Positions 108-22,595 of a DNA stretch of 32,214 nt are shown here, in pieces (position 1 is the first letter of the stretch; each line of letters begins with the position of its first letter). The notes under the pieces are model-generated. The model did not search any database and was not told the origin of the DNA. It saw nothing but the letters and a program-made list of their open reading frames with translations. A program made the position numbers and the translations under genes. The stretch lies in the NCBI GenBank assembly GCA_025061245.1, contig JANZKD010000001.1:1-32214 (forward strand). The letters run 5' to 3'. Origin of the DNA: Candidatus Culexmicrobium profundum. GTDB lineage: Archaea; Thermoproteota; Methanomethylicia; Culexarchaeales; Culexmicrobiaceae.

Positions 108-437
108 TTGTGGGTTGAATTGCTGCTCTCAGCTCCTATCACTTTCATAATAATATTCGTAATACTCTACTTGGTTTATTACTCCGGTAAATACACTGCC
201 TTTAAGCATCAGCATACTGAGGCTGAGCTGGATCCATATGCTTGTGGTGAGGGACCTGACAAGTATCCTGCTGAGTATATTCAGATGAATGTCCAGCTGT
301 ATAGATTTGCAATGTACTTTACTATATTTGATGTTGCAGCTTTTCTCCTTGCAGTTTCAGTGAGTTCACCTATTTTGGTGTTAGCATTATACATTGCAGT
401 TATGATTGCTGCATTAATTTTACTTCCGAAAGGGTGA
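108..437 (+). CDS. nuoA: NuoA/ND3-like membrane subunit of a complex-I-like/group 4 hydrogenase complex
   Basis: TTG start preceded by AAGGTGA (94-100). Three hydrophobic helices. DPYACGEGP...YFTIFDVAAFLL resembles the NuoA YECGF...FDVE signature. First gene of a tightly packed operon. Confidence 0.8.
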   Translation: MWVELLLSAPITFIIIFVILYLVYYSGKYTAFKHQHTEAELDPYACGEGPDKYPAEYIQMNVQLYRFAMYFTIFDVAAFLLAVSVSSPILVLALYIAVMIAALILLPKG

Positions 438-441
438 GATT

Positions 442-876
442 ATGGTTTCAATAATTGGGTGGAGTAGGATTAGAAGTCCATGGATCCTCTATATGGGGAC
501 TGGTCATTGTAATGCATGTGATATAGAAGTCCTAGCGGTATTGGCTCCTAGATTTGATGTTGAAAGATTCGGTATCTTATTGAAAGGGAGTCCTAGACAT
601 GCAGATGTCCTTGTTGTTACTGGTGCCGTTTCAAGGCAAACTGCACCAAGACTTAAGAGGATATATGAGCAGATGCCTAATCCTAAATTTGTGATTGCTG
701 TGGGTACCTGTGCTTGTTCAGGTGGTGTTTATTGGGGTTGCTATAATGTCTTAGGAGGAATTGATAAGGTTATTCCTGTTGATGTCTATATACCTGGTTG
801 CCCTGTTAGGCCTGAGGCTGTAATTCAAGGTGTAGCTAAGTTATTGGCTAAACTTCAGGGTGGAGGGAAGAAATAA
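442..876 (+). CDS. nuoB: NuoB-like / group 4 [NiFe]-hydrogenase small subunit (one [4Fe-4S])
   Basis: Motifs GHCNACDIE, GTCACSGG and IPGCPVRPE. The first motif is CxxC as in Mbh/Ech/Hyc small subunits, rather than the tandem CC of complex I NuoB. Confidence 0.9.
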   Translation: MVSIIGWSRIRSPWILYMGTGHCNACDIEVLAVLAPRFDVERFGILLKGSPRHADVLVVTGAVSRQTAPRLKRIYEQMPNPKFVIAVGTCACSGGVYWGCYNVLGGIDKVIPVDVYIPGCPVRPEAVIQGVAKLLAKLQGGGKK

Positions 877-1352
877 TGTCTAAGTCTACTTCGAAGGAAG
901 AATTCATTGCACATGAGCTTAAGAGTAACTTTGGAGATGTAATATCGGAGTTAAAGGTTACTGGGCCGAGGAGAGTTTATGTTACTGTTCCTCCTGAGTC
1001 GCTTCGCGATATTCTACTTTTCCTAAAGAATATGTTTAATGCTAGACATATTGTTACAATTACTGGAATTGATATGATGAAGTCTTTTGAATTAATTTAT
1101 CATATAGCCGTGCCAGGTGAGCATATTAGATCAATTTTAGTTAATGTTAAAACTCATATTCCACGCGATAATCCCACTATGCCTTCAGTTGTTGACATAC
1201 TGCCAGGTGCAACTCTATATGAACGTGAAGTTCATGATTTACTGGGTATTGTTTTTGAAGGACATCCGAATCTTGAAAGATTAATCCTACCTGATGACTG
1301 GCCTGAAGATGAGTTTCCATTAAGAAAGGATTGGAAACCTAAGGAGGTATGA
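876..1352 (+). CDS. nuoC: NuoC-like (30 kDa) subunit
   Basis: YEREVHDLLGIVFEGHPNLERLILPDDWPEDEFPLRKDW matches the NuoC family C-terminal signature. Start overlaps the nuoB stop and its stop overlaps the nuoD start. Confidence 0.85.
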   Translation: MSKSTSKEEFIAHELKSNFGDVISELKVTGPRRVYVTVPPESLRDILLFLKNMFNARHIVTITGIDMMKSFELIYHIAVPGEHIRSILVNVKTHIPRDNPTMPSVVDILPGATLYEREVHDLLGIVFEGHPNLERLILPDDWPEDEFPLRKDWKPKEV

Positions 1353-2533
1353 TGATGTCTATATATAGGATTCCTGTAGGTCCTCAACACCCGGCGATTA
1401 AGGAAGGTTTTCAATGGAACTTTAAATTGGATGGTGAAGTAATCGTTGATGTTACACCTAGATTGGGCTTTGTGCATAGAGGTATTGAGAAGGGAATGGA
1501 GTTAAGGTCATGGGTTCAAGGAATATATCTTGCTGAAAGAATTTGTGGTATTTGCAATACTCCTCACACCACTTGCTATTGTCTTGCAGTAGAGCAGTTA
1601 TATGATGTTGAAGTTCCCAAGAGAGCTCAATATCTAAGAATTATCATCAATGAATTGAACAGGATTCACAGCCACCTTCTCTGGATAGGAGTTTTAGGTA
1701 TGGAAATTGGCTTTATGACGTATTTCATGTATGTATGGAGAGATAGGGAAAGAGTGATGGATATAGTTGAACTAATAACTGGCAATAGAGTTACGATGTC
1801 AATGAACATGATTGGTGGAGTGGTTTACGATATAACTCCGCCAATGGAAGGAATTATTAGAAGGGGACTAGATTATCTTGAGGAAAGAACCAAGTATTAT
1901 AAAGAGGTTCTTTTAAATGAGCCAACTATTCGGGCTAGAACTGAGAATGTAGGTGTGCTTAGTAAGTCTGATGCTATAGATTTATGTGCAGTTGGTCCAA
2001 CTTTGAGAGGTTCTGATGTAAAGAGTGATGCACGTTTTGATGAGCCCTATTCTTCTTATGATGAAATTTCATTTAACTTAGTAACTTACCCCTACTGTGA
2101 TGTTTATGCACGTGCCCTTGTTAGGGCTGATGAGACACTTGAATCAATTAAAATAATTAGAGAATGTCTAGATAAGATGCCTAGTGGGCCAATTAAAGTT
2201 AGATTAAAACGGACTCCTCCTCCTGGTGAAGCTGTAGCAAGAGTTGAAGCTCCAAGAGGAGAATTGCTACATTATGTTAAATCTGATGGGAAGGAAAAGC
2301 CCTATAGAGTTAAAATGAGGACACCGACACTTGCAAATATACCTGCAACCTGTGAAATGTTGAAGGGTTACTATATAGCAGATATCCCTGCAATTATAGC
2401 TAGCATTGATCCATGCTACTGTTGTACTGAACGAATGCTTTTCATAGACATAAATAGTGGCAAAAGTTGGGTATGGACTGATAGTGAGCTTAGGAGGTAT
2501 AGTTTAAAGTATTATCGTGAGAGGAGGAAGTAG
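1349..2533 (+). CDS. nuoD: NuoD-like / group 4 [NiFe]-hydrogenase large subunit with intact Ni-Fe ligand motifs
   Basis: HRGIEKG...RICGICNTPH (aa 64-73, nt 1538-1567) fits RxCGxCxxxH. DPCYCCTER (aa 354-362, nt 2408-2434) fits DPCxxCxx[HR]. A 32-aa tail follows the Arg. Confidence 0.9.
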   Translation: MMMSIYRIPVGPQHPAIKEGFQWNFKLDGEVIVDVTPRLGFVHRGIEKGMELRSWVQGIYLAERICGICNTPHTTCYCLAVEQLYDVEVPKRAQYLRIIINELNRIHSHLLWIGVLGMEIGFMTYFMYVWRDRERVMDIVELITGNRVTMSMNMIGGVVYDITPPMEGIIRRGLDYLEERTKYYKEVLLNEPTIRARTENVGVLSKSDAIDLCAVGPTLRGSDVKSDARFDEPYSSYDEISFNLVTYPYCDVYARALVRADETLESIKIIRECLDKMPSGPIKVRLKRTPPPGEAVARVEAPRGELLHYVKSDGKEKPYRVKMRTPTLANIPATCEMLKGYYIADIPAIIASIDPCYCCTERMLFIDINSGKSWVWTDSELRRYSLKYYRERRK

Positions 2534-3487
2534 ATGATGAATGTTTTGTATTATTTATTTCGAGTTTTGATTTATCCTGGATTTTTGTTTATTTCGGCAT
2601 TGGCATTTGTGTTTGAGTGGATTGATAGGAAAGCTCATGCACACTTCCAAAATAGAATTGGTCCTCTATATGCTGGACCACATGGTTTTCTACAGCCTCT
2701 AGCTGATTTTATAAAGTTAATGGCTAAAGAAGATTTTACTCCAACATGGGCAAATCCAGTATTCTTCAACATTACTCCAGTATTGGCTGCAACACTTCCT
2801 GTTTTTGCTTCATTCTACATTCCATTTACAGGCATGCCTGTTCTGCCTCCGTTTGAAGGGGATCTAGTGCTTGTTTTGACTTTGACTACCTTCTTTACAA
2901 TAACTGCTTTCTTGGCAGGATGGTTTTCATCTAATAGATTTAGCTCTGTGGGTGCTATTAGAGTCGTTCTCCAATTTTTAGGCTATGAAATTCCAATGTT
3001 TATTTCTTTGGGCTCAGCAGCTATTGCTGCTGGCTCTCTTTCAATAACAAAGATTGCTAATAGCCAAGTTATACCATTTGCTATTTTGCAGCCTTTAGGT
3101 TTCGCAATTTACATTATAGCTCTTCAAGCAGAGTTGGAGAAGATCCCATTCGATATTCCTGAGGCTGAAAGTGAAATTGTTGCTGGATGGTTAACTGAAT
3201 TTGCAGGTAGGAAACTGGCTTTCTTTAGGTTATCAGAGGATTTAAGACTAGTTTTAGGTGCTGGCTTGGCAACAGCGGTTTTCCTTGGTGGTGGAAGTGG
3301 TGCTATTCTTCCACCAATAGTTTGGTTCTTGATAAAGATGGTGATAGTAGTTCTTATTGCAACTTCGTTGAGAACTGTTTTCGCCAGGTTGAAGATAGAT
3401 CAGGTTGTTAGAGGTGCATGGAAGTATCTGCTGCCCTTAGCTTTACTTCAATTGTTGATAACTAAAATCTTATTGGTGGTGATGTAG
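2534..3487 (+). CDS. nuoH: NuoH/ND1-like membrane subunit
   Basis: QNRIGPLYAGPHGFLQPLADFIKL and PEAESEIVAGWLTEFAG signatures of NuoH/HycD/MbhM. Multi-TM. Starts immediately after the nuoD stop. Confidence 0.9.
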   Translation: MMNVLYYLFRVLIYPGFLFISALAFVFEWIDRKAHAHFQNRIGPLYAGPHGFLQPLADFIKLMAKEDFTPTWANPVFFNITPVLAATLPVFASFYIPFTGMPVLPPFEGDLVLVLTLTTFFTITAFLAGWFSSNRFSSVGAIRVVLQFLGYEIPMFISLGSAAIAAGSLSITKIANSQVIPFAILQPLGFAIYIIALQAELEKIPFDIPEAESEIVAGWLTEFAGRKLAFFRLSEDLRLVLGAGLATAVFLGGGSGAILPPIVWFLIKMVIVVLIATSLRTVFARLKIDQVVRGAWKYLLPLALLQLLITKILLVVM

Positions 3488-3832
3488 ATGGCGATGCTTA
3501 GGGAGATTTGGAGACATTTCTTTAAAAAGCCTGTAACCGTTAAGTATCCATTTGAAAAACTTGAGCCTGCTGAAAGATATAGGGGAAGGCATGAATTTTA
3601 TATTGATAGATGTGTTGGCTGCGGGTTATGTGCGAAAGAGTGTCCTGCTCTTGCAATAGAGATGGTACCAAGTGATAAGACTGTTGGTGGTAAGAAGCCT
3701 GTTTTCTATTTAGACAGATGTATTTTCTGTCAGCAGTGTGAACGAATTTGCCCTAGAAATGCTATTAAGCTAACGAAGTTCTATGAGCTTGCTGCATATG
3801 ATAAAAGTGAATTGGTACTTGACATTTCCTAG
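3488..3832 (+). CDS. nuoI: NuoI-like 2x[4Fe-4S] ferredoxin subunit
   Basis: Two CxxCxxCxxxCP motifs (CVGCGLCAKECP, CIFCQQCERICP). Starts directly after the nuoH stop. Confidence 0.9.
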   Translation: MAMLREIWRHFFKKPVTVKYPFEKLEPAERYRGRHEFYIDRCVGCGLCAKECPALAIEMVPSDKTVGGKKPVFYLDRCIFCQQCERICPRNAIKLTKFYELAAYDKSELVLDIS

Positions 3833-3898
3833 CTAATGAGGGATAATAGCTAAATATATTCTTTGTTTTAACTTCTATTTATTTGGGAGACTCCTTGG

Positions 3899-5179
3899 AT
3901 GAAGATGATTGCAGATTTACACTTACATTCACATTATAGCGCTGCAACCAGTCCCGATATGACTATCCCTAAAATAGCGTATTATGCCAAAATTAAGGGA
4001 CTGAAAATTATTGGTACAGGTGATGCTTTTAATCCTTCCTGGCTTAGAGAGTTAAAATTAACTTTAGAGGAATCGTCGTATCCTGGGTTGTATTCTCCTT
4101 TAACTCCTGTTGAGGATGTATTTTTTATCATGCAATCTGAGGTTGGAACCATATTTGAGTTTGAGGGTAAGGTTAGACGTGTACATCATGTAATTTTAAT
4201 GCCGAATATTGAAGTTGCAGAGCAGATTTCTGACATTCTATCCTTTTATGGTAACGTTTCTTCTGATGGTAGACCCGTATTTAATATGCATCCTTCAGAG
4301 CTTGTTGAGATCGTCTTGGAGGTAGATGAGAATTGTTTAATATATCCTGCTCATGCGTGGACACCGTGGTGGAGCATTTTTGGTTCCTTTAGTGGCGTGG
4401 ATAGAATGGAGGATTGCTATGGTGACCAAGTTAAAAAGATATACGCATTAGAGACGGGGTTAAGTAGTGATCCGGAGATGAATTGGAGGGTGAGTGCCTT
4501 AGATAAATATGCTCTTGTTAGTGCCTCTGATGCTCATTCTCCATGGCCATTTAGATTGGGGAGAGAGGCCTGTGTCTTTGACTTTAAGAAGCCAAGCTAT
4601 TATGAACTTATTGATGCTATTAAACATAAGGATGCAAGTCGTTTTTTGATGACAATTGAGGTGGATCCTGCGTATGGCAAATATCATTGGTCTGGCCATC
4701 GGAAATGCGGTTTTGGCCCTATACCCCCTTCTGAAGCTGCTAAGCTGAATTACATTTGCCCTATTTGTGGAAGGAAATTAACTAAGGGTGTTGATGATCG
4801 AGTGGAGGAATTAGCAGATAGACCTAAAGGTTTTAGACCTGAGAAGGCAATTCCCTACATAAAATTATTGCCTCTCCAAGAACTTATTGCAACAGTTTTA
4901 GGAATAAGTCCATTCAATGTTAGACGTTTATACACTGGAAAGGTTTGGGAAGAATATCTTAAGCTTATACATAAACTGGGACCGGAATATAGAGTTGTTC
5001 TAGATGCACCATTAGATGAAATTGCAAAGGTTACATCAAGTGGGATAGCTAAGGCAATAGCTAAGCTAAGGAGTAATAGTCTTAAAGTTATTCCGGGATA
5101 TGATGGTGTATATGGTAAAATAATATTTTTTGAGGATAAGGAAGATCAATTAGATTTAAAGAAGTTTATTTCCTATTAG
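3899..5179 (+). CDS. PHP-domain nuclease, probable endonuclease Q (EndoQ) family
   Basis: N-terminal DLHLHSHYS PHP metal motif, SASDAHS, internal zinc-ribbon CPICGRKLTKGVDDRV, and about 426 aa, as in archaeal EndoQ. Assigned from memory of family motifs, not a search. Confidence 0.6.
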   Translation: MKMIADLHLHSHYSAATSPDMTIPKIAYYAKIKGLKIIGTGDAFNPSWLRELKLTLEESSYPGLYSPLTPVEDVFFIMQSEVGTIFEFEGKVRRVHHVILMPNIEVAEQISDILSFYGNVSSDGRPVFNMHPSELVEIVLEVDENCLIYPAHAWTPWWSIFGSFSGVDRMEDCYGDQVKKIYALETGLSSDPEMNWRVSALDKYALVSASDAHSPWPFRLGREACVFDFKKPSYYELIDAIKHKDASRFLMTIEVDPAYGKYHWSGHRKCGFGPIPPSEAAKLNYICPICGRKLTKGVDDRVEELADRPKGFRPEKAIPYIKLLPLQELIATVLGISPFNVRRLYTGKVWEEYLKLIHKLGPEYRVVLDAPLDEIAKVTSSGIAKAIAKLRSNSLKVIPGYDGVYGKIIFFEDKEDQLDLKKFISY

Positions 5180-5841
5180 GATTCTTTCTTTACTAGGAAT
5201 TCTCTCCATCTACCATCTCTTAGTCGTCGGATAACTCCTTTCCATCCTTCTTGATCTACAATGTCTGCGATTATCATCCAATCTATTTTGAGTAGTGCTA
5301 CTGTAATTATTATCAGAAATATTATTGAAGCAATTGCCCCGTATATACTTCCACCCAACATTAATCCTAGGATATTCACAAATGTCTTACCGAATACTGC
5401 TATGAACATGCTTAAAGCTATTTTACCTGCTAGACATGCTATTAGGAATTTGAAGAAACTGTATCTAATTAATCCTAGTGGAATGATTACTATGTCATCT
5501 GGTGATGGTGTAATCGTAAATACGAATACAGCTAATGCTCCATATTTATCAAGTAATTGTCTTAAGCGAGCTATCCTATACTCTTTTTCCTCTCCTATGA
5601 GTTTTCCACTTCCGAAACTGAATATGTATACGATTACTTTACCTACTGTGCCTCCTATTCCGCTAATAATGCCTAGTATTACTGGTTCGACTGGAAGGTA
5701 TGCTGCCATGTAAAATATTGCGACAAGATATGGTATTGGAATAAAGGGTATTAAGTTTCCTAGAACGGACACTATAAATGCGCCTAGGTATCCATGTTCA
5801 ACTACTATTTGTATTAACCATTTCTCTAGATTTTCAAGCAA
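5176..5841 (-). CDS. DedA/SNARE-associated (VTT domain) family membrane protein
   Basis: About 220 aa polytopic protein with a DedA-like layout (GYLGAFIVSVLGN.IPFIP, ITPSPDD). Convergent with the EndoQ-like gene, with a 4-nt overlap. Confidence 0.7.
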   Translation of the reverse strand: MLENLEKWLIQIVVEHGYLGAFIVSVLGNLIPFIPIPYLVAIFYMAAYLPVEPVILGIISGIGGTVGKVIVYIFSFGSGKLIGEEKEYRIARLRQLLDKYGALAVFVFTITPSPDDIVIIPLGLIRYSFFKFLIACLAGKIALSMFIAVFGKTFVNILGLMLGGSIYGAIASIIFLIIITVALLKIDWMIIADIVDQEGWKGVIRRLRDGRWREFLVKKES

Positions 5842-5994: not shown

Positions 5995-6252
5995 TTGGAG
6001 TTTGCGTCGATTGTATCCTTACTTTTGGGTATACTTATAGTGGCTTTTGCAGTATTGGCTATTGAAATAAAGAACATAACTCATGCAATACTTTCATTAT
6101 GTGCTTTTAGTATAATTATTGCAATAGCCTTCATATTGTTAAATGCTCCATATGTTGCTGTTTTTCAACTTGCAATTTATGCTGGTGCTGTTACTGTTCT
6201 ATTTCTCATTACTATTATGTTAACTAAGAAGGAGGAGGTAGAGTTGCCATGA
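5995..6252 (+). CDS. nuoJ: NuoJ-like subunit, N-terminal part (split nuoJ)
   Basis: TTG start after a GGGGGCAGAG purine run. Three TM helices. VAVFQLAIYAGAVTVLFLITIML resembles the NuoJ Q..VY.GA..VLF signature. Confidence 0.7.
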   Translation: MEFASIVSLLLGILIVAFAVLAIEIKNITHAILSLCAFSIIIAIAFILLNAPYVAVFQLAIYAGAVTVLFLITIMLTKKEEVELP

Positions 6253-6527
6253 AGTTGAATGAAATTATAGGAGCAATTACAGCTCTAATACTTGCCTACT
6301 TTCTAGCTAATCTTCTAACCTCCGGCTTCGCAGAATTAGGGCTCTTTCCCTATGCTGGAAGGGCATTTTGGCTCACACCACCAGGAACAAATTTCTATCA
6401 AATCGGTCAAGCTGTTGGACAGTTTCTATGGAGGCTAAGATCTATTGACGTCTTAGCCCAAGTTCTTGTTCTATTTTCATCGGCACTTGGCGTTGTATGT
6501 TTGCTTAGGGAGGAGAAGGAAAAATGA
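6249..6527 (+). CDS. NuoJ-like subunit, C-terminal part (split nuoJ)
   Basis: 4-nt overlap with the previous ORF. The terminal helix RSIDVLAQVLVLFSSALGVVCLL resembles the last NuoJ helix (FE.aS.LLL.A.iGA). Confidence 0.55.
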   Translation: MKLNEIIGAITALILAYFLANLLTSGFAELGLFPYAGRAFWLTPPGTNFYQIGQAVGQFLWRLRSIDVLAQVLVLFSSALGVVCLLREEKEK

Positions 6528-6841
6528 GTTCTCCACTCTTCACCTTTATGGCTACTTCTGCAGTTTTACTTGCAGTTGGCTTATATGGGCTAATGGTTAA
6601 GAGAAACATGATTAGATTGATAATTTCACTTGAGATTCTAGTTAGTGCTGCGAATTTAAATTTCATAACTTTCTCAGCGTTCAGATCACTGGGTCTAGTT
6701 GATCCACTAGCACATACTTACACAATTATCATCATCTCTATAGAAGCCTGTGTAATTGGTGTAGCCTTGGCTTTCGTTATAAATGCATATAAGCATTATA
6801 AGACTCTTGATGTAACTAAGTTGAAGAAGTTGAGGTGGTAG
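6524..6841 (+). CDS. nuoK: NuoK/ND4L/MrpC-like subunit
   Basis: 105 aa, 3 TM. LYGLMVKRNMIRLIISLEILVSAANLNFI is the NuoK-family signature, including the membrane Glu. Confidence 0.85.
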   Translation: MSSPLFTFMATSAVLLAVGLYGLMVKRNMIRLIISLEILVSAANLNFITFSAFRSLGLVDPLAHTYTIIIISIEACVIGVALAFVINAYKHYKTLDVTKLKKLRW

Positions 6842-8346: not shown

Positions 8347-8348
8347 TT

Positions 8349-9278
8349 TTAACTTAATACCTTCTCTTTCAATCTACAAAATGCACATAGGTCTTGCGAA
8401 GTAGGATAGCCACATTTAATACATTCATTAATTTTTTGATCTACCTTGTCTGAATAGTGGCTCTCTAATGCTTTATAGATTTTATTTGTAAAGTTTCTTA
8501 ATAGTGAGAGTTTTGTTCCTGGTCTGATTTCTTCTAGTTGCATTATTATTTTCTTGAATTTTAGTATTGGTGAGTCTTGTGCATAGGGGCATGGTATTTC
8601 AATGTATTTTAAATTATTTATTAGACAGTAGATTTGAGTTTCTAAGTCTGAGATTTCACATAGTGGTTTTATTCTGGCTATTAGTTTTTCATGTATTTTT
8701 GGTAAGTGTGGTTTTCTTTTGAGGAGCATGTTAATGTTTCCGTTGATGTAGTTTAACATTAAAAATGTAACTTCATCATCTAGGGTGTGGCCTGTTGCTA
8801 TTTTGTCTGCATTAATTTCAAGTGCATATTCATTTAATATTCTTCTTTTGATTAATCCGCAAATTGAGCATGGAGGTCTTCTAATTTTTCTTACAGCTTC
8901 ATTGATTGTGAATCCATATTTCTCTTTAATGGAGATAACCTTGTTTTCAATCTTTATTGTTGAGCATATTTGATTGAAGATTTCTCTACTTTTTGTTGAG
9001 TATTCATTGATTCCTAAGTCGATATGCACTGCCATCAACTCGTTGGTATCTTTGAGTATTTCGGTTAATGCATGTAGCATTGCAATACTATCTTTTCCTC
9101 CTGAAACTCCAATTAATATCTTTTCATTGTGTTTAATCATCTGGTATTTCTTTATTGTTTTTGCTACTCTGTTTATGAAGTATGTTTTAAAGTGTTCTTT
9201 GCATAATCTGATGCCTGCATATTTCAGGGATATGAATGCTTTTGACTTGCACATTGAACATTTACTCTTTTTTCTCAT
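8349..9278 (-). CDS. TtuA/NcsA-family tRNA 2-thiolation PP-loop ATPase
   Basis: PP-loop SGGKDS, GHTLDDE, Fe-S ligands PPCSICG and PCPYA, and N- and C-terminal zinc fingers (CSMC...CKEH; CIKCG...CAFC). I start at the internal ATG 9278, which has AGGTGA upstream. The track ORF extends to 9386 through an implausible leader. Confidence 0.8.
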   Translation of the reverse strand: MRKKSKCSMCKSKAFISLKYAGIRLCKEHFKTYFINRVAKTIKKYQMIKHNEKILIGVSGGKDSIAMLHALTEILKDTNELMAVHIDLGINEYSTKSREIFNQICSTIKIENKVISIKEKYGFTINEAVRKIRRPPCSICGLIKRRILNEYALEINADKIATGHTLDDEVTFLMLNYINGNINMLLKRKPHLPKIHEKLIARIKPLCEISDLETQIYCLINNLKYIEIPCPYAQDSPILKFKKIIMQLEEIRPGTKLSLLRNFTNKIYKALESHYSDKVDQKINECIKCGYPTSQDLCAFCRLKEKVLS

Positions 9279-9400
9279 TTGTTTCTCACCTTTCCTTAAT
9301 CTGGTTCTATCCTGATATTTATACTCAAGCGCAAAAATTAAAAGTATCATCATATCCAAAGACATAAGGCACAGGCTGTATAGCATTTGGCGGTGTACCT

Positions 9401-11203: not shown

Positions 11204-11275
11204 TTTTTTCTAAATAAGAAGTCTTATAAGGAGATTGAATTTTTTATTGATAGTAGAAAAATGGAGGTGTGATGG

Positions 11276-11743: not shown

Positions 11744-11763
11744 TGTACTTATAGGTGTAATCA

Positions 11764-12366: not shown

Positions 12367-12368
12367 GC

Positions 12369-15608: not shown

Positions 15609-16142
15609 GTGGGCAAGATTACTACTATTAAAATAAATGATGATGCATTGGCATATATTGAAGTCGTATTAAAAGGTGGGCGTTTTCGTCATTTGAAGGA
15701 TTTTGTTAACCACTGCTTAACCTTAGCTGCGACCTACACTATGGATGAGTGGGATTTAAACAAAGGTGTATTTTATATTCATCCTTGTAGGATTTGTATT
15801 GTTCCAGCTGATATACTATCTGCATTGCTTGAACTTATTCCTGATGATGCGAAGAAGGATGCTATTGAAAGCATGACTTCTTGTTTGCGTCCTAGACTTC
15901 GTTTTTGGCATATTACACCTAAGAAGCCCGAGGATCGCCGTAAAATTTTAAAGTTGCTGACTTTGCATGGTTTTGGAAGATTCACAATACAAGATGACAA
16001 TACTATTGAAGTTTCTTACCCTGTTCTTCCATATGACATAGTTAAAAGTGTTCTTGAAACATTATTAAAAGTAAGATTGGAAACTTTAGAGTGCTCAAAG
16101 GTTACGTATGTCTTTAAAATTATTGAAGAGCTAAATGAGTAG
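15609..16142 (+). CDS. Hypothetical protein, possible ribbon-helix-helix-like N-terminus
   Basis: GTG start after GGTGA. The N-terminus KITTIKINDDALAYIEVVLKGGRFRHLKDFVNHCL has a beta-strand plus two-helix pattern like CopG/Arc RHH. No other motif recognised. Confidence 0.45.
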   Translation: MGKITTIKINDDALAYIEVVLKGGRFRHLKDFVNHCLTLAATYTMDEWDLNKGVFYIHPCRICIVPADILSALLELIPDDAKKDAIESMTSCLRPRLRFWHITPKKPEDRRKILKLLTLHGFGRFTIQDDNTIEVSYPVLPYDIVKSVLETLLKVRLETLECSKVTYVFKIIEELNE

Positions 16143-16235: not shown

Positions 16236-18398
16236 ATGATAATATATTCTCCCTGGCTATGTTGGCTCATACCAATTGTAGGAGCGATGCTAACTCCCTT
16301 TATAGCTAGAATAAGTGAGAAGGCTCGAGATTATACTGCTGTTTTATTTGGTTTTTTAGCTGCTGTTATGGCTGCATCTATGATACCAGCGATAATGGCT
16401 GGTAAATTTTATATTCCAGGTAAGGGTTTGGTTCCGATTCCTGCTGATTGGAAGTATGAGTGGATCATTGTTCCTGGAGCTAAGCTTAATGTTGGTGTGC
16501 TTGTTGATCCATTAAGTGTTTTAGTGGCTAATGTTGTAGCTTGGATTTCCTTTTTAATTCTAATTTACAGCTTGGGCTATATGCATGGAGAGGAGGGTTT
16601 AACTAGGTATTGGTTCTTCATGAACTTCTTTATTGGAAACATGCTTCTCCTCGTAATGTCTGATAATATTCTTCAAATGTTATTTGGATGGGAGGGTGTT
16701 GGTTTATGCAGCTATCAGCTCATTGGTTTTTGGTATAGAGATGAGCGTAAGAGATGGGTTGGAGATGTTCCACCTTCACATGCAGGTATGAAGGCTTTCA
16801 TAATGACTAGGGCTGGAGATGTAGCTCTAATGATTGCTGCTTTCATAATATTTACTCAAGCTAAGACCTTTAATTTCATGGAACTTCAACAAAATCATGA
16901 ATGGATAGTTGAGTTGGCTAAGGTTGGTTTAATTGCACCAGTAGCATTATTTCTTTTTGGTGGTCCTATCGGTAAATCCGCTCAATTTCCATTACATGAA
17001 TGGCTTCCTGAGGCAATGGCTGGTCCAACTCCTGTTTCAGCTCTAATACATGCTGCTACCATGGTTAAGGCTGGTGTCTACTTTACTGCTAGAGTCTTCC
17101 CTATTTTCACTGAGAGCTTTAAGTTAGCTGCTGAGGGAGTTCATAACGGGTTCGAGGGAGTAATACTTACAGCCCAAAATCAATTCTTCCTAACTGTTGC
17201 GTGGATTGGTGCTTTTACAGCTTTTCTAGCTGCTTCTCAAGCTATGGTTGCTAGGGAGTTGAAGAAGGTTTTAGCTTATTCAACTGTTTCACAGATAGGC
17301 TATATGATGCTTGGTTTAGGTGCTGGTGGATTGGCTGGTGAACATGCTGCTAGTGGTTATGTTGCAGGTGTATTTCACTTGATGAGCCATGCTATATTCA
17401 AGGCGCTACTCTTCATGGCTGCTGGATCCGTTTTACATGCATGTGAGACAACTGATATGTTTGAGATGGGTGGTATTAGGAGGGAAATGCCAATTACATT
17501 TGCATGTATGCTCATTGGTGCTTTGTCATTGTCAGGAATTCCACCATTAAGTGGATTTTGGAGTAAGGAGGCTGTTTTTGGTGCATGTATAAAGTCTGGA
17601 CAATATTTATTGTTAGCTTTGGCTGCTATTACTGCTGCAATGACTTTCTTCTATAGTATTAGGATGATTAGTATAACTTTCTTGGGTAAGAAGAGTCATC
17701 ATTTGGAGGAGCTTGAACGTCATGGTCATCATGTACATGAAGTTCCATCTGTAATGTGGATTCCATATTTAATATTAGCTGTTGCTACTATTGGTATTGG
17801 TTTTATGGGTCCTATGTTTGAGCATATGTTAGAAGAGTTTCTTGAGCCATCCATATTCCCTCATCACGGTATACATTCATCGCTTCTCGCAATTTCAACT
17901 ACTGCTGAGCCTGCTGGTCCGCCAACCCAGTTGATGACTATGGTTATAACTGCTTCAATGCTTCTTCTTGGTGGAATTCCTGGTTATCTTATGTATGTTT
18001 CAAGGAGAGTAGATCCAGTAAAATTTGTGGATAGGTATGGTCTAAAGCCAATATATAATTTCTTGTGGAATCGATGGTATATGAACCCTACATACTATAA
18101 GGTCTTTGTATACTCTCTGATTGACTTGAGCTCTGTCCTATTTAAAAATCTCGAGAAGGCTGTGATTGACAAGGTTAACTATGTGGTTGCTAATGGAATT
18201 ATAAAAATGAGTGCAGGGTTGTTTAGAAGTTTAGAAGTGAAGGTAATTGATGGTGCAAATTATGCTTTAGCTAAGGCTGTGGTTGCCTTCTATAGGGTGT
18301 TTCGAAGAATTCAGACTGGAATTCTGTCGTACAATATGCTTGGAATAGTTTTTGGCCTCTTGGTTGTTGGTGCCTTACTTATTTTATTAGGACTATAA
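16236..18398 (+). CDS. nuoL: NuoL/ND5-like antiporter-like subunit with C-terminal lateral helix and anchor TM
   Basis: GWEGVGLCSY (TM5 Glu), GKSAQFPLHEWLPEAM (TM7 Lys), MKAFIMTRAGD. About 105 aa of amphipathic sequence (aa 591-695) is followed by a final TM (aa 696-720), as in NuoL helix HL plus TM16. Confidence 0.9.
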   Translation: MIIYSPWLCWLIPIVGAMLTPFIARISEKARDYTAVLFGFLAAVMAASMIPAIMAGKFYIPGKGLVPIPADWKYEWIIVPGAKLNVGVLVDPLSVLVANVVAWISFLILIYSLGYMHGEEGLTRYWFFMNFFIGNMLLLVMSDNILQMLFGWEGVGLCSYQLIGFWYRDERKRWVGDVPPSHAGMKAFIMTRAGDVALMIAAFIIFTQAKTFNFMELQQNHEWIVELAKVGLIAPVALFLFGGPIGKSAQFPLHEWLPEAMAGPTPVSALIHAATMVKAGVYFTARVFPIFTESFKLAAEGVHNGFEGVILTAQNQFFLTVAWIGAFTAFLAASQAMVARELKKVLAYSTVSQIGYMMLGLGAGGLAGEHAASGYVAGVFHLMSHAIFKALLFMAAGSVLHACETTDMFEMGGIRREMPITFACMLIGALSLSGIPPLSGFWSKEAVFGACIKSGQYLLLALAAITAAMTFFYSIRMISITFLGKKSHHLEELERHGHHVHEVPSVMWIPYLILAVATIGIGFMGPMFEHMLEEFLEPSIFPHHGIHSSLLAISTTAEPAGPPTQLMTMVITASMLLLGGIPGYLMYVSRRVDPVKFVDRYGLKPIYNFLWNRWYMNPTYYKVFVYSLIDLSSVLFKNLEKAVIDKVNYVVANGIIKMSAGLFRSLEVKVIDGANYALAKAVVAFYRVFRRIQTGILSYNMLGIVFGLLVVGALLILLGL

Positions 18399-18509: not shown

Positions 18510-19559
18510 GTGCTTATGATGATTAAAGTTGATGGCTCTATTGGAAGCGGTAGTGGTACAATTTTACGATTATCTCTATTTTTATCTGCTCTTCTTAATG
18601 AGAAACTATACATATTTAATATCCGAGCAAAACGTAAGCCTCCAGGTTTAAAGCCTCAACATCTTAAGGCTGTTTTGGCTGTAGCGAGGCTTTGTAATGC
18701 TAGGATTGAGGGTGCTTCTATTGGTTCGAGAGAGCTTTATTTTGAGCCTGATGGTGTTGGAGGCGGTAAGTTCACTATTGAAATTGGTACTGCAGGCAGT
18801 ATTCCAATGGTTATTCTAACTATTCTTCCAATAAGTGTTTTAGCAGATAAATTAGTTGAAATTAACATTGTTAAGGGTGGGACTGATGTTCGTTTTTCTC
18901 CTACAATAAATTACATAAAGTTTGTGTTATTGTATGTTTTAAGAAAATTTAATGTCAATGCTTCAGTTGAGGTGTTAAAGTATGGTTATTATCCTAAAGG
19001 TATGGGGTGGGTTACCCTAAAAGTTTCTCCTTTGAATAGAATTAAACCTGTGCTTCTTGATAGAAGAGGTACACTTGATTGTATTAGTGGTATTTCTGTG
19101 TGTACTTATCTTAAGGATAGGCATGTAGCTGATCGTCAAGCTAAATCTGCATTAAATCTACTGAAATCTAAAGGTATTGATGTAGATGTTAATATTGATG
19201 TAGTTTATGACTTTTCGAATCCATTACAGAAGGGTAGTTCCATAACTTTATGGGCTGACTTTAGTGAGGGGTGCAGGTTAGGTTCGGATGCTATTGGTGC
19301 TCTTAGAAAGCCCAGTGAGGTGGTTGGTGGTGAGGCTGCTAAGAAGCTTTTAGCTGAGTTGAAGATTAATTCAACTGTTGATGTTCATTTGGCAGATATA
19401 CTAATTCCTTATATGGCTCTAGCTAAGGGTTATTCTTGCTTTCTTGTTAGATCTATAACAGAGCATCTTTCAACTAATATGCGGTTAATGAAAATGTTTC
19501 TTGATGTTAATTTTAAAGTTTCAAAAGTTGGCAATGTCTTTAGGGTTGAATGTTATTAG
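18510..19559 (+). CDS. rtcA: RNA 3'-terminal phosphate cyclase
   Basis: DGS.GSGSGTILRLSLFLSAL, GGTDVRFSPTINY and VDVHLADILIPYMALA (catalytic His region) match the RtcA family. GTG at 18510, or ATG at 18516/18519. Confidence 0.85.
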   Translation: MLMMIKVDGSIGSGSGTILRLSLFLSALLNEKLYIFNIRAKRKPPGLKPQHLKAVLAVARLCNARIEGASIGSRELYFEPDGVGGGKFTIEIGTAGSIPMVILTILPISVLADKLVEINIVKGGTDVRFSPTINYIKFVLLYVLRKFNVNASVEVLKYGYYPKGMGWVTLKVSPLNRIKPVLLDRRGTLDCISGISVCTYLKDRHVADRQAKSALNLLKSKGIDVDVNIDVVYDFSNPLQKGSSITLWADFSEGCRLGSDAIGALRKPSEVVGGEAAKKLLAELKINSTVDVHLADILIPYMALAKGYSCFLVRSITEHLSTNMRLMKMFLDVNFKVSKVGNVFRVECY

Positions 19560-19570
19560 AGGGTGATGGA

Positions 19571-20995
19571 ATGTATAGAGTGAGGATTAGAGGGATTTAT
19601 GCTACTGCGTTGACAAAGATATTTTTGGATGAGAATTTTGAAATTGTTCAGCCGTCAGTTGTAATTGAGGAGAGATTTGACCTGCCTTTTTCATTAAAAC
19701 CTTATGATGTTGATATTTATGATCGAACGGATAAGCAAGGAGTTAGTATTCTTTGCTTACCTGAAATTAAACCTTCTATTGCTTCTATTCTTCATGGAAG
19801 ATTACTGGATGCTATAATTAGATGTTGGAAGCCTCAAGTTGGAGGTATTTATAAAGGGATTGTTAGGGAAGTTGATAAGTCTAGAGGAATATGTTATGTA
19901 GAAATAGAACCTGATGTTTTTGGAATTTTAAAGAGCAGTAATGTTTTTGTCGGTGATGAGCTTATCGTTCAAGTTGATAGAGAGCGTTTTCGTGGTAGAC
20001 ATGCTCTTTTATCCACAGATATTAAGATTGTAGGTAATTACGCGATTTTAATTCCAAAAGAAACTATTAAAATTAGTAGAAAAATTAGAGATCCTGATAA
20101 ACGTTTATTTCTGGTGAAGCTTGGCCAGGAGTTGAGACCTAGAGGTTGGGGTATTATTTGGAGAACGGCTGCTCTTTCAGTTTCTGAGGAGGATTTAAAA
20201 AGTGAAATTTTGAAACTTCTTGATAGATGTAAATTGTTTATTAGTAGAGCAAGTAACGTTAATGGTCCTGCTATTTTGATGGATGGTTTAGTTTTCCTAG
20301 ATGTCGAGTTTCCATCTGAATCCAAAAAGATCCTTGATACTATACGTAGTGAAGTAACTCCTACAGTGCCAGGTCATCACTACTTGAAATCATTTAATAC
20401 TGAACTTTCAGCTTTAGTTGACATGGCAGAGTCTCTTCTTAGAAAGGGTTCTAGTCGTGAGGAAGTATTAAGTCGTCTTAACCAGTTATTATCCATTAAC
20501 TTGCCTCAAGAGGGTGATGACATTGTAATTAAACATGTAAAATTGAATGGTAAGACGATAAATATTGGACCTGCAAGAATTGAACATTTTAATCAATCTG
20601 ATGGTACAATTGTGTTGAGACGTAATATTGTTAGTCCGGGCGTCTATGATGGATTAAATGTAGTGAAATCTCCAGGTGATTATGCTATAACCAGGGCTAA
20701 AATTGGTGAATGGTTTTTAGAGACTAGATATTTTTCATGTGAAGGTAAGTTTAAGGGTGCTTACATCAATATTAATACTCCAATAGAGATTTACTCGAAT
20801 TTTATTAGATATGTTGATTTAGAAGTTGATGTTTGCGTTGATTATAAGGATAATGTTTCTGTTCTGGATAGAGATAAACTTTGTGAGGCACTTAAAATGA
20901 ATATGGTGTCGAAGAGTTTATTCGAAAGGGTTGATGAAATAATTAAACATATTCTTGATGAGAGAATTCCTGTCATTCTAGAGGCTAAAAATTGA
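19571..20995 (+). CDS. Probable ribonuclease FAU-1 (archaeal RNase E/G-like, DUF402 C-domain)
   Basis: MYRVRIRGIYATALTK is the typical FAU-1 N-terminus, and the roughly 475 aa length fits. ATG at 19571 follows GAGGGTGA. The track ORF starts at 19550, inside the rtcA end. Confidence 0.7.
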   Translation: MYRVRIRGIYATALTKIFLDENFEIVQPSVVIEERFDLPFSLKPYDVDIYDRTDKQGVSILCLPEIKPSIASILHGRLLDAIIRCWKPQVGGIYKGIVREVDKSRGICYVEIEPDVFGILKSSNVFVGDELIVQVDRERFRGRHALLSTDIKIVGNYAILIPKETIKISRKIRDPDKRLFLVKLGQELRPRGWGIIWRTAALSVSEEDLKSEILKLLDRCKLFISRASNVNGPAILMDGLVFLDVEFPSESKKILDTIRSEVTPTVPGHHYLKSFNTELSALVDMAESLLRKGSSREEVLSRLNQLLSINLPQEGDDIVIKHVKLNGKTINIGPARIEHFNQSDGTIVLRRNIVSPGVYDGLNVVKSPGDYAITRAKIGEWFLETRYFSCEGKFKGAYININTPIEIYSNFIRYVDLEVDVCVDYKDNVSVLDRDKLCEALKMNMVSKSLFERVDEIIKHILDERIPVILEAKN

Positions 20996-21101
20996 TGTTG
21001 ATTTTATAAATTTGCATCATCTTGTTTAGCATAAATGTTTTATATGGTTAGTATAGACTGCATAATGCAATTAGTTGACGCTTAATTTGGGAGGTTGTCA
21101 T

Positions 21102-22595
21102 GTGACCGGCCCAGCAAATCTACTTGCTCAAATCTTGGTTGTACCCTTAATCTTTGTTCCAATAGCTTATTGCTCTAGTAAGCGTCTTGGTTGGAGAACT
21201 GGTTGGATTGCTTTTCTTCCATTAGCTTACACCACCCTTGTTACATTATACTTAGTGAACTATGTGTCGAAAAATGGAGTTGTTTTAGGAGTTTGGCCAC
21301 TAGCTCCATCAGTAGGTTTAAACTTTGGGTTGATGGCTGATGGTTTAAGTACACCAATTATATTTACAATAGCATTACTTTGTACTGTCGTTGCAATCTA
21401 CTCGATGCCTTATATGGAGCATAAGTTGGGTGAGTGTGGATCTGGTCATGGTGCCTATTATGCATTATATCTCCTGTATGCGGTCGGTATGCTTGGTACT
21501 GCTATGTCAACAAATTTGATTCAGTTTTACTTCTTCTGGGAATTGATGCTGGTGCCTTCGTGGGCTTTAATTAACATTTGGGGTTATGGTGAGAGAGAGA
21601 AGATAGCCCTAAAGTATTTCATTTATACTCATATTGGTGCATTGTCTCTACTTGCAGGTATATTGGCTGTTTATGCGGCCTTTGGAACCTTCGATATACC
21701 AGTACTATTGTCATTGGTTCATGAGGGTTCTCATTCAGTAGGATTTCTACGATGGGTTGTTTTGGCAATGTTTCTTGGATTTGCAGTGAAGATGGCTATT
21801 GTTCCTCTACATACATGGCTTCCCGATGCACATGCAGAGGCTCCTACTCCAATTAGTGCCCTCCTATCTCCTGCTATGATTGGACTTGGAGGCTATGCTT
21901 TAGTTAGATTAGCCTATATATTATTCCCTGAAGTTTTCGAGCAATTTAGCTTGGTATTTAGTGTTTTGGCTTTGATTACTATGATTTATGGTGGCATCAT
22001 GGCTTTGGCTCAGGACGATATAAAGAGATTATTAGCATATTCAAGTGTTTCTCAGATGGGATATTTATTGTTTGGAATTACAAGTAGTTATCCTCAAGGA
22101 ATTAGTGGTTCAATGTTTCACTATGTTAGTCATGGTACGTGTAAGGCTATTCTCTTCATGATGGCTGGTGCAATTATGCTTGAGACCCATGGTATACGTA
22201 GCATTAAGAGGCTTGGTGGCTTAGCTAGTAAAATGCCCTTAACTACGATATTTACTTTGATTGGCTTCTTAGGTATTGCTGGTACTCCTCCTCTTAATGG
22301 TTTTCAGAGTGAATGGTTAATTTTCACTGGGGCCTTTGCTGGAGCTATTGAAGCCCATAATGCAGTTCGATTACTGATAACAATTGTTGCATTGATGGGA
22401 ACTGTTTTGACTGCTGGATATGCCTTGTGGACTATTAGGAGAATATTCTTTGGACCACTACCTGAGCATTTAGATGAAGTTCATGAAGCTCCACTACTTG
22501 TAACTATTCCAATGTTTATCTTAGCGCTTGTCACAGTGGTTTTAGGTATTTATCCAACACCACTATTGAGGCTTCTTTCAATGTTCTTTGGCTAA
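21102..22595 (+). CDS. nuoM: Antiporter-like subunit (NuoM/ND4 family)
   Basis: FFWELMLVPSW (TM5 Glu), GFAVKMAIVPLHTWLPDAHAEAPTP (TM7 Lys), KRLLAYSSVSQMGY. The GTG at 21102 is 6 nt after GGGAGGT; the track ORF begins at TTG 21075. Confidence 0.85.
   Translation: MTGPANLLAQILVVPLIFVPIAYCSSKRLGWRTGWIAFLPLAYTTLVTLYLVNYVSKNGVVLGVWPLAPSVGLNFGLMADGLSTPIIFTIALLCTVVAIYSMPYMEHKLGECGSGHGAYYALYLLYAVGMLGTAMSTNLIQFYFFWELMLVPSWALINIWGYGEREKIALKYFIYTHIGALSLLAGILAVYAAFGTFDIPVLLSLVHEGSHSVGFLRWVVLAMFLGFAVKMAIVPLHTWLPDAHAEAPTPISALLSPAMIGLGGYALVRLAYILFPEVFEQFSLVFSVLALITMIYGGIMALAQDDIKRLLAYSSVSQMGYLLFGITSSYPQGISGSMFHYVSHGTCKAILFMMAGAIMLETHGIRSIKRLGGLASKMPLTTIFTLIGFLGIAGTPPLNGFQSEWLIFTGAFAGAIEAHNAVRLLITIVALMGTVLTAGYALWTIRRIFFGPLPEHLDEVHEAPLLVTIPMFILALVTVVLGIYPTPLLRLLSMFFG

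Follow-up and report, generated by a model that had tools for sequence, protein, structure and literature searches.

The stretch of DNA analysed here, referred to as the window, spans 32,214 nucleotides and corresponds almost certainly to the largest scaffold in the MAG 'Ca. Culexmicrobium profundum' GB-1867-035. It holds twelve intact ORFs, all on the plus strand, that correspond to NuoA, B, C, D, H and I, a split NuoJ, NuoK and three antiporter-like subunits. They lie in four blocks with unrelated genes between, a point not stressed in the original prediction for this locus. The first block encodes a NuoA-like subunit with three TM helices (A, 108–437, 109 aa), the hydrogenase small subunit or NuoB homologue (B, 442–876, 144 aa), a NuoC/MbhK homologue (C, 876–1352, 158 aa), the [NiFe] large subunit, homologous to NuoD (D, 1349–2533, 394 aa), a NuoH/MbhM homologue (H, 2534–3487, 317 aa) and a NuoI/MbhN homologue (I, 3488–3832, 114 aa). 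The second comprises J1, corresponding to the N-terminal half of NuoJ or to MbhD (5995–6252, 85 aa), J2, corresponding to the C-terminal part of NuoJ or to MbhE (6249–6527, 92 aa), a NuoK/MbhG homologue (K, 6524–6841, 105 aa) and the proximal, N-like antiporter-like subunit (6835–8346, 503 aa). The genes for a NuoL/NdhF-type subunit (L, 16236–18398, 720 aa) and a NuoM/NdhD-type subunit (M, 21075–22595, 506 aa) stand 7.9 and 12.7 kb downstream of N, with ATPase, RtcA and FAU-1 genes between. This dispersed synteny recurs in an independent assembly and in a 68%-identical relative. We also see that the arm genes are interleaved with genes for the ATP synthase membrane sector (I, c, C), an arrangement conserved in Culexarchaeia and Asgard archaea.

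The large subunit D matches the Pfam families Complex1_49kDa (E = 1e-76) and NiFeSe_Hases (E = 7e-14). Direct reading gives the motifs RICGICNTPH and DPCYCCTER, followed by a C-terminal extension of 32 residues, which conforms to the RxCGxCxxxH and DPCxxCxx(R/H) pattern of group 4 membrane-bound [NiFe]-hydrogenase large subunits. Both [NiFe] motifs and the C-terminal processing peptide are found in 119 of the 120 closest homologues, and Glu19 is invariant in an alignment of 34 sequences. Among solved structures the best match is MbhL (286 bits), with HycE second (255 bits); against the NCBIfam NuoD equivalog model, D scores 380.7 (cut-off 360). For the small subunit B, matches were obtained to Pfam Oxidored_q6 (E = 9e-36) and to the NCBIfam NuoB subfamily (175.6 bits, cut-off 116). 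Its ligands, C-N-A-C (within GHCNAC), GTCACSGG and GCP, make up one [4Fe-4S] site, and the tandem CC of complex I is absent. This is the CxxC...C...CP arrangement of a NuoB-type small subunit with a single proximal [4Fe-4S] cluster, and the sequence C-N-[AG]-C-D-I-E is common to nearly all relatives. Subunit C matches Complex1_30kDa (E = 5e-34). The NuoI homologue matches Pfam Fer4 families, carries two CxxCxxCxxxCP motifs that indicate two [4Fe-4S] sites, and is probably the ferredoxin docking subunit.

In the membrane arm, H is a clear NADHdh family member (E = 1e-87) that retains the TM5-6 loop 'AELEKIPFDIPEAESEIVAGW', and direct reading shows that E-channel residues are kept in both H and K. 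Subunit K matches Oxidored_q2 (E = 1e-22) and the NCBIfam NuoK model (64 bits, cut-off 57), with both membrane Glu residues in place. Subunit A scores 31.8 bits against Oxidored_q4, for which the cut-off is 23.3; its NCBIfam matches are weak, and its best PDB matches are NdhC, NuoA and Nqo7 (E = 0.003–0.07). It has a 'PYACGEGP' loop and a 'FDVA' motif, in which the Asp is retained and the Glu swapped for Ala. J1 scores higher against Oxidored_q3 (58.8 bits) than against MbhD (42.4 bits) and has 'YAGAVTVLF' in TM3. J2 has no match in the profile library, and its best PDB matches are MbhE and MbsE (E = 0.13–0.21). However, a profile of archaeal J2 orthologues aligns with fused NuoJ-like ORFs of bacteria in their C-terminal part (E = 1e-6 to 1e-9), and J2 occupies an equivalent position in relatives. 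Judged by sequence, the split J is of the Mbh type (MbhD/E) and not of the NuoJ type.

All three antiporter-like subunits match Proton_antipo_M (E = 1e-68 to 1e-77) and all three carry the TM5 Glu, TM7 Lys and TM12 Lys, while the TM8 Lys is absent from M, which has Gly there. Of the three, L and M alone reach the cut-offs of complex-I models: L gives 517 bits with NCBIfam NDH_I_L (cut-off 407.5) and 354 bits with NdhF1 in the PDB, and M gives 356 bits with NDH_I_M (cut-off 264). The N-like subunit falls under the NDH_I_N cut-off, with PRK08376 as its best NCBIfam match, and its PDB matches are MbhH (327 bits), MbsH (236 bits) and NdhB (200 bits); sequence comparison thus assigns this proximal subunit to the MbhH type and not to the NuoN type. 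In an AF2 model of L (pLDDT 85, pTM 0.83), a continuous lateral helix of 75 residues (618–692) lies between TM15 and TM16, with TM16 as an anchor after it, and Foldseek superposes the model on full-length NdhF/NuoL chains. Every subunit of a complex-I-type membrane arm is represented in the window: A, H, J, K, M, N and an L that has the lateral helix, the N slot being taken by an MbhH-type paralogue.

The window ORFs that were scanned with profiles include no electron-input module (NuoEFG or FpoF) and no homologue of NuoE, NuoF or NuoG. The other four ORFs of more than 100 aa show no sign of NuoE/F/G on direct reading, and neither do the Pfam matches of two counterparts in related locus L088. 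Likewise, the scanned ORFs gave no Pfam or NCBIfam match to MrpE/F/G/B, the equivalents of MbhA, B, C and F, and the clusters of relatives contain none either. Much of the original prediction is borne out by these data. The eleven-subunit set is present as intact ORFs at the coordinates given, the assignments of NuoA and NuoJ hold up in profile searches, and NuoE/F/G are missing as claimed; the predicted hydrogenase-type ligands can be read directly in B and D, the TM5 Glu and TM7 Lys are where they were said to be, and the long lateral helix of L is seen in the model. Also supported is the view of the enzyme as a [NiFe] hydrogenase module mounted on an A/H/J/K/N/M/L membrane arm that lacks NuoEFG. 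The subunit typing in the prediction needs revision in part: L and M are of complex-I type as proposed, but the N-like subunit and the split J resemble MbhH and MbhD/E.

The original prediction had also implied that this intermediate architecture was new, and here the data disagree. In a supplementary table, Kohtz 2022 lists D (Ga0190363_10002264, the scaffold's fourth gene) as a catalytic subunit of group '[NiFe]-4g', an assignment based on HydDB. We compared 87 related loci, drawn from Thermoproteota, from Asgard archaea and from numerous bacterial phyla, and 86 of them retain both [NiFe] motifs. They include Endomicrobia, Omnitrophota and Bathyarchaeota, lineages whose enzymes are classed as 4g in the literature. 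Where full flanks were available, 32 of 47 loci have three antiporter-like genes with most or all of A, J and K; some relatives have just one or two antiporter-like genes nearby. Because D is placed in group 4g by Kohtz 2022 and most family members carry the same subunit set, and because related Asgard enzymes were published as complex-I-like in 2024, the claim of novelty fails: the class is widespread and the window gene was already classified in 2022, so the prediction is correct but not new. This goes most of the way to an outcome that the prediction had named as counting against it, a large subunit inside a well-described subgroup whose members share its subunit set; 4g itself is an uncharacterised class and not a well-described one. 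No biochemically or structurally characterised group 4g enzyme is found in the literature; HydDB treats 4g as a putative ferredoxin-coupled class, and the publication that assigned D to 4g also proposes a ferredoxin-to-H2 role with ion transport.

Maturation genes had been proposed as a further check. Neither hyp genes nor an endopeptidase gene occur within the window, and Kohtz 2022 lists hypA, hypC, hypD, hypE, hypF and hycI elsewhere in MAG GB-1867-035, with no row for hypB in the supplement. The genome thus has both Hyp maturation genes and an endopeptidase, but the hyp genes are not specific to the window enzyme, since the same MAG also has 3c and 4b [NiFe] hydrogenases. In a Thermoprotei MAG (GCA_021162845.1, locus L002) the whole set is contiguous, with hypCDEF-hycI directly adjoining.

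Taken together, we consider it likely (probability about 0.75) that all twelve gene products form a single membrane-bound [NiFe]-hydrogenase belonging to HydDB group 4g. In composition it looks like an Mbh-like core from which the Mrp-derived small subunits are absent and to which a complex-I/NDH-type L and M extension has been added. The most likely function is ferredoxin-dependent, ion-translocating H2 evolution, possibly reversible. Gene content and motifs are observed directly and the fold of L is taken from its model, while the electron path and coupling outlined here follow homology to Mbh, FHL and complex I. The NuoI homologue would dock reduced ferredoxin and pass electrons through its two [4Fe-4S] clusters to the single small-subunit cluster, and then to the [NiFe] site of the large subunit, where protons would be reduced to H2. 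Redox chemistry at the D/B/H/A interface would be coupled to ion translocation by way of a complex-I-like E-channel (H, A, split J and K) and a chain of MbhH-type proximal, NuoM-type and NuoL-type subunits, with the lateral helix of L clamping the arm. On thermodynamic grounds, the ferredoxin/H+ couple should supply only about 7–39 kJ per H2, enough for about two ions per H2 at most. The ferredoxin:H+ oxidoreduction foreseen by the original prediction stands as most likely, but its 'up to four ion paths' cannot be read as four ions moved per H2: a driving force this small excludes four ions per turnover, argues against the 4 H+/2e- stoichiometry of complex I and makes four independent pumps unlikely. 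Within this limit, some modules may exchange Na+ for H+, pumping may be sub-stoichiometric, or the enzyme may run in reverse under some conditions. The four-block layout, the missing TM8 Lys in M and the missing conserved Glu in NuoA also speak against this explanation.

The same complex could instead work in the opposite direction, spending an ion gradient on the uphill reduction of ferredoxin by H2; its long arm would then serve to give a high ratio of ions to electrons. In methanogens, Eha, Ehb and Ech perform gradient-driven ferredoxin reduction of this kind. The energy released from ferredoxin to H2 seems insufficient to account for an E-channel and three antiporter-like modules, related Ech-type enzymes are physiologically reversible according to HydDB, and Culexarchaeia have Wood-Ljungdahl genes as well as a 3c Mvh-Hdr, each of which requires ferredoxin in reduced form. 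No sequence feature fixes the direction, however; the MAG authors infer a fermentative, H2-evolving lifestyle, and the solved structures closest to the large subunit are the H2-evolving MbhL and HycE, so we regard reverse operation as the rather unlikely case. The excess of coupling modules over what the ferredoxin/H+ couple can drive also raises the idea that group 4g enzymes are not simple H2-evolving pumps. L and M might act as a Na+/H+ exchanger, or the enzyme as a whole might be a gradient-consuming H2:ferredoxin oxidoreductase, and the interleaving of arm and ATP synthase genes might be the mark of a hydrogenase-ATPase energy unit whose parts are assembled together or closely co-regulated; we judge this unlikely.

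That L and M belong to the hydrogenase at all could be doubted, given the 7.9 and 12.7 kb that part them from N, with ATPase, RtcA and FAU-1 genes between. An Mbh-like enzyme of A-B-C-D-H-I and J1-J2-K-N only, with one antiporter-like subunit, would then leave L and M to another complex or a separate antiporter, and the relatives with one or two antiporter-like genes nearby, such as the Baldrarchaeia locus with two, are compatible with this. However, in loci L002, L013, L020, L021, L036 and L073, L and M form one contiguous run with the core. The window subunits are closest to such versions, with 46–53% identity to the L and M contiguous with hydrogenase cores in L002, L013 and L021, and among the loci compared the closest counterparts of L adjoin hydrogenase cores. 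A lateral helix of 75 residues is sensible only if L spans neighbouring antiporter-like subunits, and the window holds no other Nuo or Mrp core genes; separate use of L and M thus appears quite improbable. The name under which similar 11-gene clusters are frequently annotated suggests instead an Fpo/Nuo-like ferredoxin:acceptor oxidoreductase, reducing quinone, methanophenazine or HdrD, in which the Cys residues are vestigial. D does exceed the NuoD equivalog cut-off (380.7 vs 360), its homologues are called NuoD or NuoL in databases, and Bathyarchaeia clusters have been termed 'fpo-like'. We find this very hard to reconcile with a B that lacks the tandem CC typical of complex I NuoB, with hyp and hycI genes that adjoin the cluster in relatives, and with four [NiFe] Cys, a hydrogenase-type CxxC in B and a cleavable C-terminal peptide that are kept family-wide.

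A group 4g hydrogenase of this composition can be set beside several known systems. E. coli Hyf (formate hydrogenlyase-2, group 4a) resembles the window enzyme in combining a [NiFe] hydrogenase with three antiporter-like subunits, and HycE shares the C-terminal processing peptide with D. Hyf is formate-coupled via FdhF and HycB-like subunits and is not known to have a NuoA or NuoJ homologue, as the original prediction also noted; the window, by contrast, encodes A and J but lacks a formate module. The 11-subunit core of complex I, NDH-1 and Fpo has the same inventory (A, B, C, D, H, I, J, K, L, M and N), the fold of L agrees with NuoL/NdhF over its full length, and contiguous relatives have a nuo-like gene order. 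In complex I and Fpo, however, NuoD has lost the [NiFe] Cys and NuoB has a tandem Cys-Cys for N2, whereas the window proteins retain the Cys, with a [NiFe] site in place of the quinone site and CxxC in B. Complex I also has an NADH or F420 input module where the window has none; the N slot of the window is filled by an MbhH-type subunit, and its M has Lys, not Glu, at TM12 and lacks the TM8 Lys.

Pyrococcus furiosus Mbh (group 4d; PDB 6CFW) offers the best match for D (MbhL), for the proximal antiporter-like subunit (MbhH) and for J2 (MbhE). As in the window, its J is split (MbhD/E). The mbh operon contains the runs mbhD-E-G-H and mbhJ-K-L-M-N, plus mbhI, and the order of the window's two proximal blocks agrees with these runs, with the NuoA-type gene at the place of mbhI. 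Mbh has MbhA/B/C/F (MrpE/F/G/B-like), which the window does not, placing the window enzyme outside the Mrp-linked 4d type. Where Mbh has MbhI, the window has the 3-TM NuoA-type A, and it adds NuoL- and NuoM-type subunits and the long lateral helix; the deposited MbhL chain ends at DPCxxCxxR, while D has a C-terminal extension.

Related group 4 hydrogenases of Asgard archaea, whose genes share a syntenic block with those for ATP synthase, were presented in 2024 as complex-I-like with a full lateral helix, in Freyarchaeia and Atabeyarchaeia (Valentin-Alvarado 2024) and in Heimdallarchaeia and others as subgroups 4j-4q (Appler 2024). Large subunits from Baldrarchaeia and Hodarchaeota are 58–59% identical to D. 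Asgard versions are reported to have two antiporter-like subunits, or to lack one or more, whereas the window has three; the Baldrarchaeia locus has L and N only, plus HdrB-like genes, and no Hdr genes lie near the window cluster. Group 4g homologues from Endomicrobia, Omnitrophota and Bathyarchaeota are members of one family with the window enzyme, with 48–60% identity and the core subunits and motifs in common, although the bacterial loci sampled gave no BLASTP match to A, J1 or K of the window. Nothing essential differs: the window lineage has four dispersed blocks and a split J, and the bacteria have a compact operon and a fused J.

Reading the open reading frames (ORFs) of the window directly gives 12 intact plus-strand genes, which make up an 11-subunit inventory of A, B, C, D, H, I, a split J (J1 and J2), K, N, L and M. 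According to the ORFs and Pfam searches, these lie in four hydrogenase blocks on the plus strand, at 108-3832, 5995-8346, 16236-18398 and 21075-22595, and genes for a PHP-domain protein, DedA, TtuA, the A-type ATPase subunits I, c and C, RtcA and a FAU-1-like RNase are interspersed among the blocks. A, B, C, D, H, I, J1, K and the three Proton_antipo_M proteins exceed their Pfam gathering scores, and the window ORFs that were scanned included no homologue of NuoE, NuoF or NuoG and no MrpE/F/G/B-like small subunit. The subunit set named in the original prediction, which lacked NuoE/F/G, is borne out by the Pfam scores, the ORFs and a profile for J2.

We considered whether J2 is a spurious ORF or a frameshift product. 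It gave zero matches to the Pfam and NCBIfam libraries, and its top PDB matches are MbhE and MbsE. This explanation was rejected, as J2 keeps the same position in related loci and a profile built from orthologous proteins hits the C-terminal portion of fused NuoJ-like ORFs from bacteria; with J1 above its gathering score, the proposed split NuoJ holds. The dispersed gene order might likewise reflect an assembly chimera, but the same order recurs in an independent 79.6 kb ENA contig and in a 68%-identical relative, and this explanation was also rejected. The L and M proteins share 46-53% identity with those encoded contiguously with hydrogenase cores, a point in favour of assigning these scattered genes to the hydrogenase.

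Several of the neighbouring genes have counterparts elsewhere. A PHP-type protein (426 aa) and a minus-strand DedA/VTT membrane protein are encoded between NuoI and J1 (3899-5841), and the same pair occupies this place in a relative (locus L088, 830-2779); the recorded product of the PHP-type gene has Pfam MJ0043_C, while our own Pfam scan of this protein gave zero matches. A-type ATP synthase membrane-sector genes lie between N and L in the window (9401-13430), in L088 (5338-9286) and in a further related locus, L001 (18049-21182). They encode a 600-aa subunit I, a 155-aa c subunit (duplicated, with 4 TM helices and both Glu residues kept) and, on the minus strand, subunit C/d; their order is kept in the 68%-identical relative, and the catalytic A and B subunits are absent from the window. 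A second, divergent subunit I paralogue of 463 aa (14069-15460, minus strand) shares 36% identity with the 600-aa copy; its N-terminal domain is shorter by about 150 residues, and the essential Arg motif SYGRILAL is retained. This paralogue is missing from L088, as are a 177-aa ORF (15609-16142), TtuA (8349-9386) and RtcA (18510-19559). The window further holds phosphomannomutase and radical-SAM genes, and a gene for CofE (F420-0:gamma-glutamyl ligase; 25962-26735, minus strand, E 1e-82) in a lineage described as non-methanogenic; frhB is also among the genes tabulated for this metagenome-assembled genome (MAG) (Kohtz et al. 2022, PMC9723716).

The catalytic subunits carry the hydrogenase-type ligands that had been proposed for them. 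The large subunit D (1349-2533) contains the motifs RICGICNTPH and DPCYCCTER, followed by a 32-residue HycE-like tail, and the small subunit B (442-876) has C-N-A-C where complex I has a tandem CC. Glu19 of D is invariant across a 34-sequence alignment and aligns with MbhL Glu21, the proposed proton donor in Mbh. Identity as complex I or Fpo was weighed against these residues: D scores 380.7 in the NCBIfam equivalog model 'NADH-quinone oxidoreductase subunit D' (cut-off 360), but the [NiFe] cysteines are kept and B has the CxxC, and this identity was therefore rejected. An Mbh-type (group 4d) hydrogenase was also considered, and was rejected because the ORFs scanned include no Mrp small subunits.

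The large subunit (window gene 4) has already been assigned to HydDB group 4g in the description of MAG GB-1867-035 ('Ca. Culexmicrobium profundum', Culexarchaeia; 35.0% GC), where it is proposed to act in ferredoxin oxidation, H2 production and ion transport (Kohtz et al. 2022, PMC9723716). According to the same table, other scaffolds of this genome carry hycI, hypA, hypC, hypD, hypE and hypF; hyp maturation genes and an endopeptidase had been named as a check in the original prediction, and the listed genes remove the objection that the cysteines are vestigial. HydDB treats 4g as a loosely clustered, uncharacterised and putatively ferredoxin-coupled class, a 2024 paper still terms it uncharacterised, and our literature searches turned up neither a solved structure nor a biochemical study of any 4g or complex-I-like hydrogenase. 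The enzyme is therefore already known: the class was defined in 2016, the gene was classified in 2022, and complex-I-like architecture was discussed in 2024. The observation of a [NiFe] site on such an arm was correct and its functional reading reasonable, but the implied novelty of an intermediate between energy-converting hydrogenases and complex I does not stand.

By sequence comparison the membrane arm is a mosaic, some of its parts being Mbh-type and others complex-I-type. N (6835-8346), the antiporter-like subunit in the proximal position, scores 327 bits with MbhH, versus about 200 bits or less with NuoN/NdhB (153 bits for E. coli NuoN), and the split J comprises counterparts of MbhD and MbhE, with J1-J2-K-N in mbhD-E-G-H order. 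The A-B-C-D-H-I block occupies the mbhI-J-K-L-M-N positions, although A itself is not MbhI-like; Pfam and PDB searches identify it as a 3-TM NuoA-type protein, as originally assigned. L and M pass the NCBIfam models NDH_I_L and NDH_I_M, respectively, and the nearest relative of L is cyanobacterial NdhF1 (354 bits, versus 132 bits for MbhH). The complex-I-type assignment thus stands for L, M and A, whereas N and the split J are better described as Mbh-type. An AF2 model of L (16236-18398; pLDDT 85, pTM 0.83) has TM15, a continuous 75-residue helix (618-692) and TM16, in agreement with the predicted long lateral helix. Its fold aligns with full-length chains of NdhF, NuoL and ND5 at TM-scores of 0.74-0.82, and none of its top 50 structural matches is a hydrogenase chain.

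The TM5 Glu and TM7 Lys occur in all three antiporter-like subunits, as had been read, and so does the TM12 Lys; M (21075-22595) has Gly in place of the TM8 Lys ('MIGLGGY'). Across other loci (among them L002, L004, L013, L019, L021, L036 and L065), this TM8 residue is Gly, Lys, Glu or Ser in archaeal M-like orthologues and nearly always Lys in the sampled bacterial members, and its variability hints that the M-like module may not be a canonical pump. E-channel features are kept in three subunits: H has the loop AELEKIPFDIPEAESEIVAGW, K retains its two Glu residues, and J carries YAGAVTVLF.

The enzyme most likely functions as a ferredoxin-dependent, ion-translocating hydrogenase. By homology, electrons would pass from ferredoxin through two clusters in I and one in B to the [NiFe] site, where H2 would be formed, and this chemistry would be coupled to ion movement via the E-channel and the N-M-L chain. 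Ferredoxin has a potential of approximately -450 to -500 mV, and the H+/H2 couple lies at -414 mV at 1 bar and approximately -300 mV at 10 Pa. Computed from standard potentials, the energy yield is approximately 7-39 kJ per H2, and moving one ion against 150-180 mV costs 14-17 kJ, which together give an estimated thermodynamic ceiling of about two ions per H2, compared to four for NADH-to-quinone. The predicted ferredoxin:H+ reaction remains the most likely one, but the 'up to four ion paths' therefore cannot all pump once per turnover. Some modules may exchange Na+ for H+, the pumping itself may be sub-stoichiometric, or the complex may run in reverse, spending the gradient to reduce ferredoxin with H2.

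D has thousands of homologues, the nearest being from Culexarchaeia/'Methanomethylicota' (76-80% identity), followed by Thermoprotei, Bathyarchaeia, Baldrarchaeia and Hodarchaeota (56-62%). Both [NiFe] motifs occur in 119 of the 120 best homologues, and all 120 have a C-terminal extension of 25-41 residues. Scanning one genome per species gave at least 590 relatives. The best locus among the matches listed is 60% identical, and the best 80, which were examined, also contain loci at 48-53% identity from Omnitrophota, Elusimicrobiota, Phycisphaerae, Bacillota, Chloroflexota (among them the isolate Leptolinea tardivitalis) and Aminicenantes. We searched 87 fetched loci with the window's subunits; both motifs are found in 86, and the hydrogenase-type CxxC in B is nearly universal. 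Full 10-kb flanks were available for 47 loci; three antiporter-like genes occur in 32 of these and two in another 10, and such multi-antiporter loci usually also hold J, K, A, B, C, D, H and I. Contiguous archaeal clusters (e.g. L013, L021) follow the nuo order minus EFG, and the Thermoprotei MAG GCA_021162845.1 has the order M, L | A B C D H I J1 J2 K N, with hypD, hypE, hypC, hypF and hycI immediately beside it. In our survey, A/J/K combined with three antiporters is the usual state of the family, which spans many archaeal and bacterial phyla.

Bacterial loci (L024-L087, at least 10 phyla) have a compact operon in common, which runs from three antiporter-like genes (~480, 630 and 480 aa) through a fused J and then K to A, B, C, D, H and I, adjoined in some cases by hyp genes (e.g. 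L050, L085). A cultured carrier, Leptolinea tardivitalis YMTK-2 (L076), has two antiporter-like genes, and an A gene was not detected in its locus. In a Baldrarchaeia locus (L006, 4806-8512), genes for an HdrB-like CCG-domain protein, a ferredoxin-like protein, lipoate-protein ligase and GcvH separate a J1 J2 K L N block from the A-B-C-D-H-I block, with hypE after the I subunit; this arrangement agrees with the Hdr-linked complexes that Appler 2024 reported for Asgard archaea.

Many D homologues (P0003, P0006-P0009, P0019-P0023) carry the public names NuoD or NADH dehydrogenase, and similar 11-gene clusters of Bathyarchaeia have been called 'fpo-like' in the literature. As L013 and other Bathyarchaeia loci retain the [NiFe] motifs, some 'Fpo-like' complexes may be hydrogenases; annotation pipelines routinely misname 4g-type enzymes NuoD/NuoL or 'Fpo-like', as our survey of relatives indicates.

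The window thus encodes no new kind of enzyme, and its remaining interest is modest, resting on an uncharacterised class with relevance to the origin of complex I. For group 4 enzymes of Freyarchaeia and Atabeyarchaeia, the modelling of Valentin-Alvarado et al. 2024 emphasised a full lateral helix, together with L, M and K chains that resemble those of complex I and are encoded in one block with ATP synthase genes, and the interleaving of ATPase and hydrogenase genes in the window recalls the syntenic block of Freyarchaeia. According to Appler et al. 2024, the Asgard subgroups 4j-4q form a bridge between Mbh and complex I. Compared to the Asgard enzymes, the three-module arm encoded here is more complete, and such an arm is also found in many Bathyarchaeia, Thermoprotei, Nitrososphaeria and bacterial members. 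The 4g hydrogenases are probably the nearest living architecture to complex I that still makes or uses H2, and are suited to studying how a quinone-reducing proton pump arose from a hydrogenase and what number of ions a redox reaction of low energy yield can drive through an arm of several modules.
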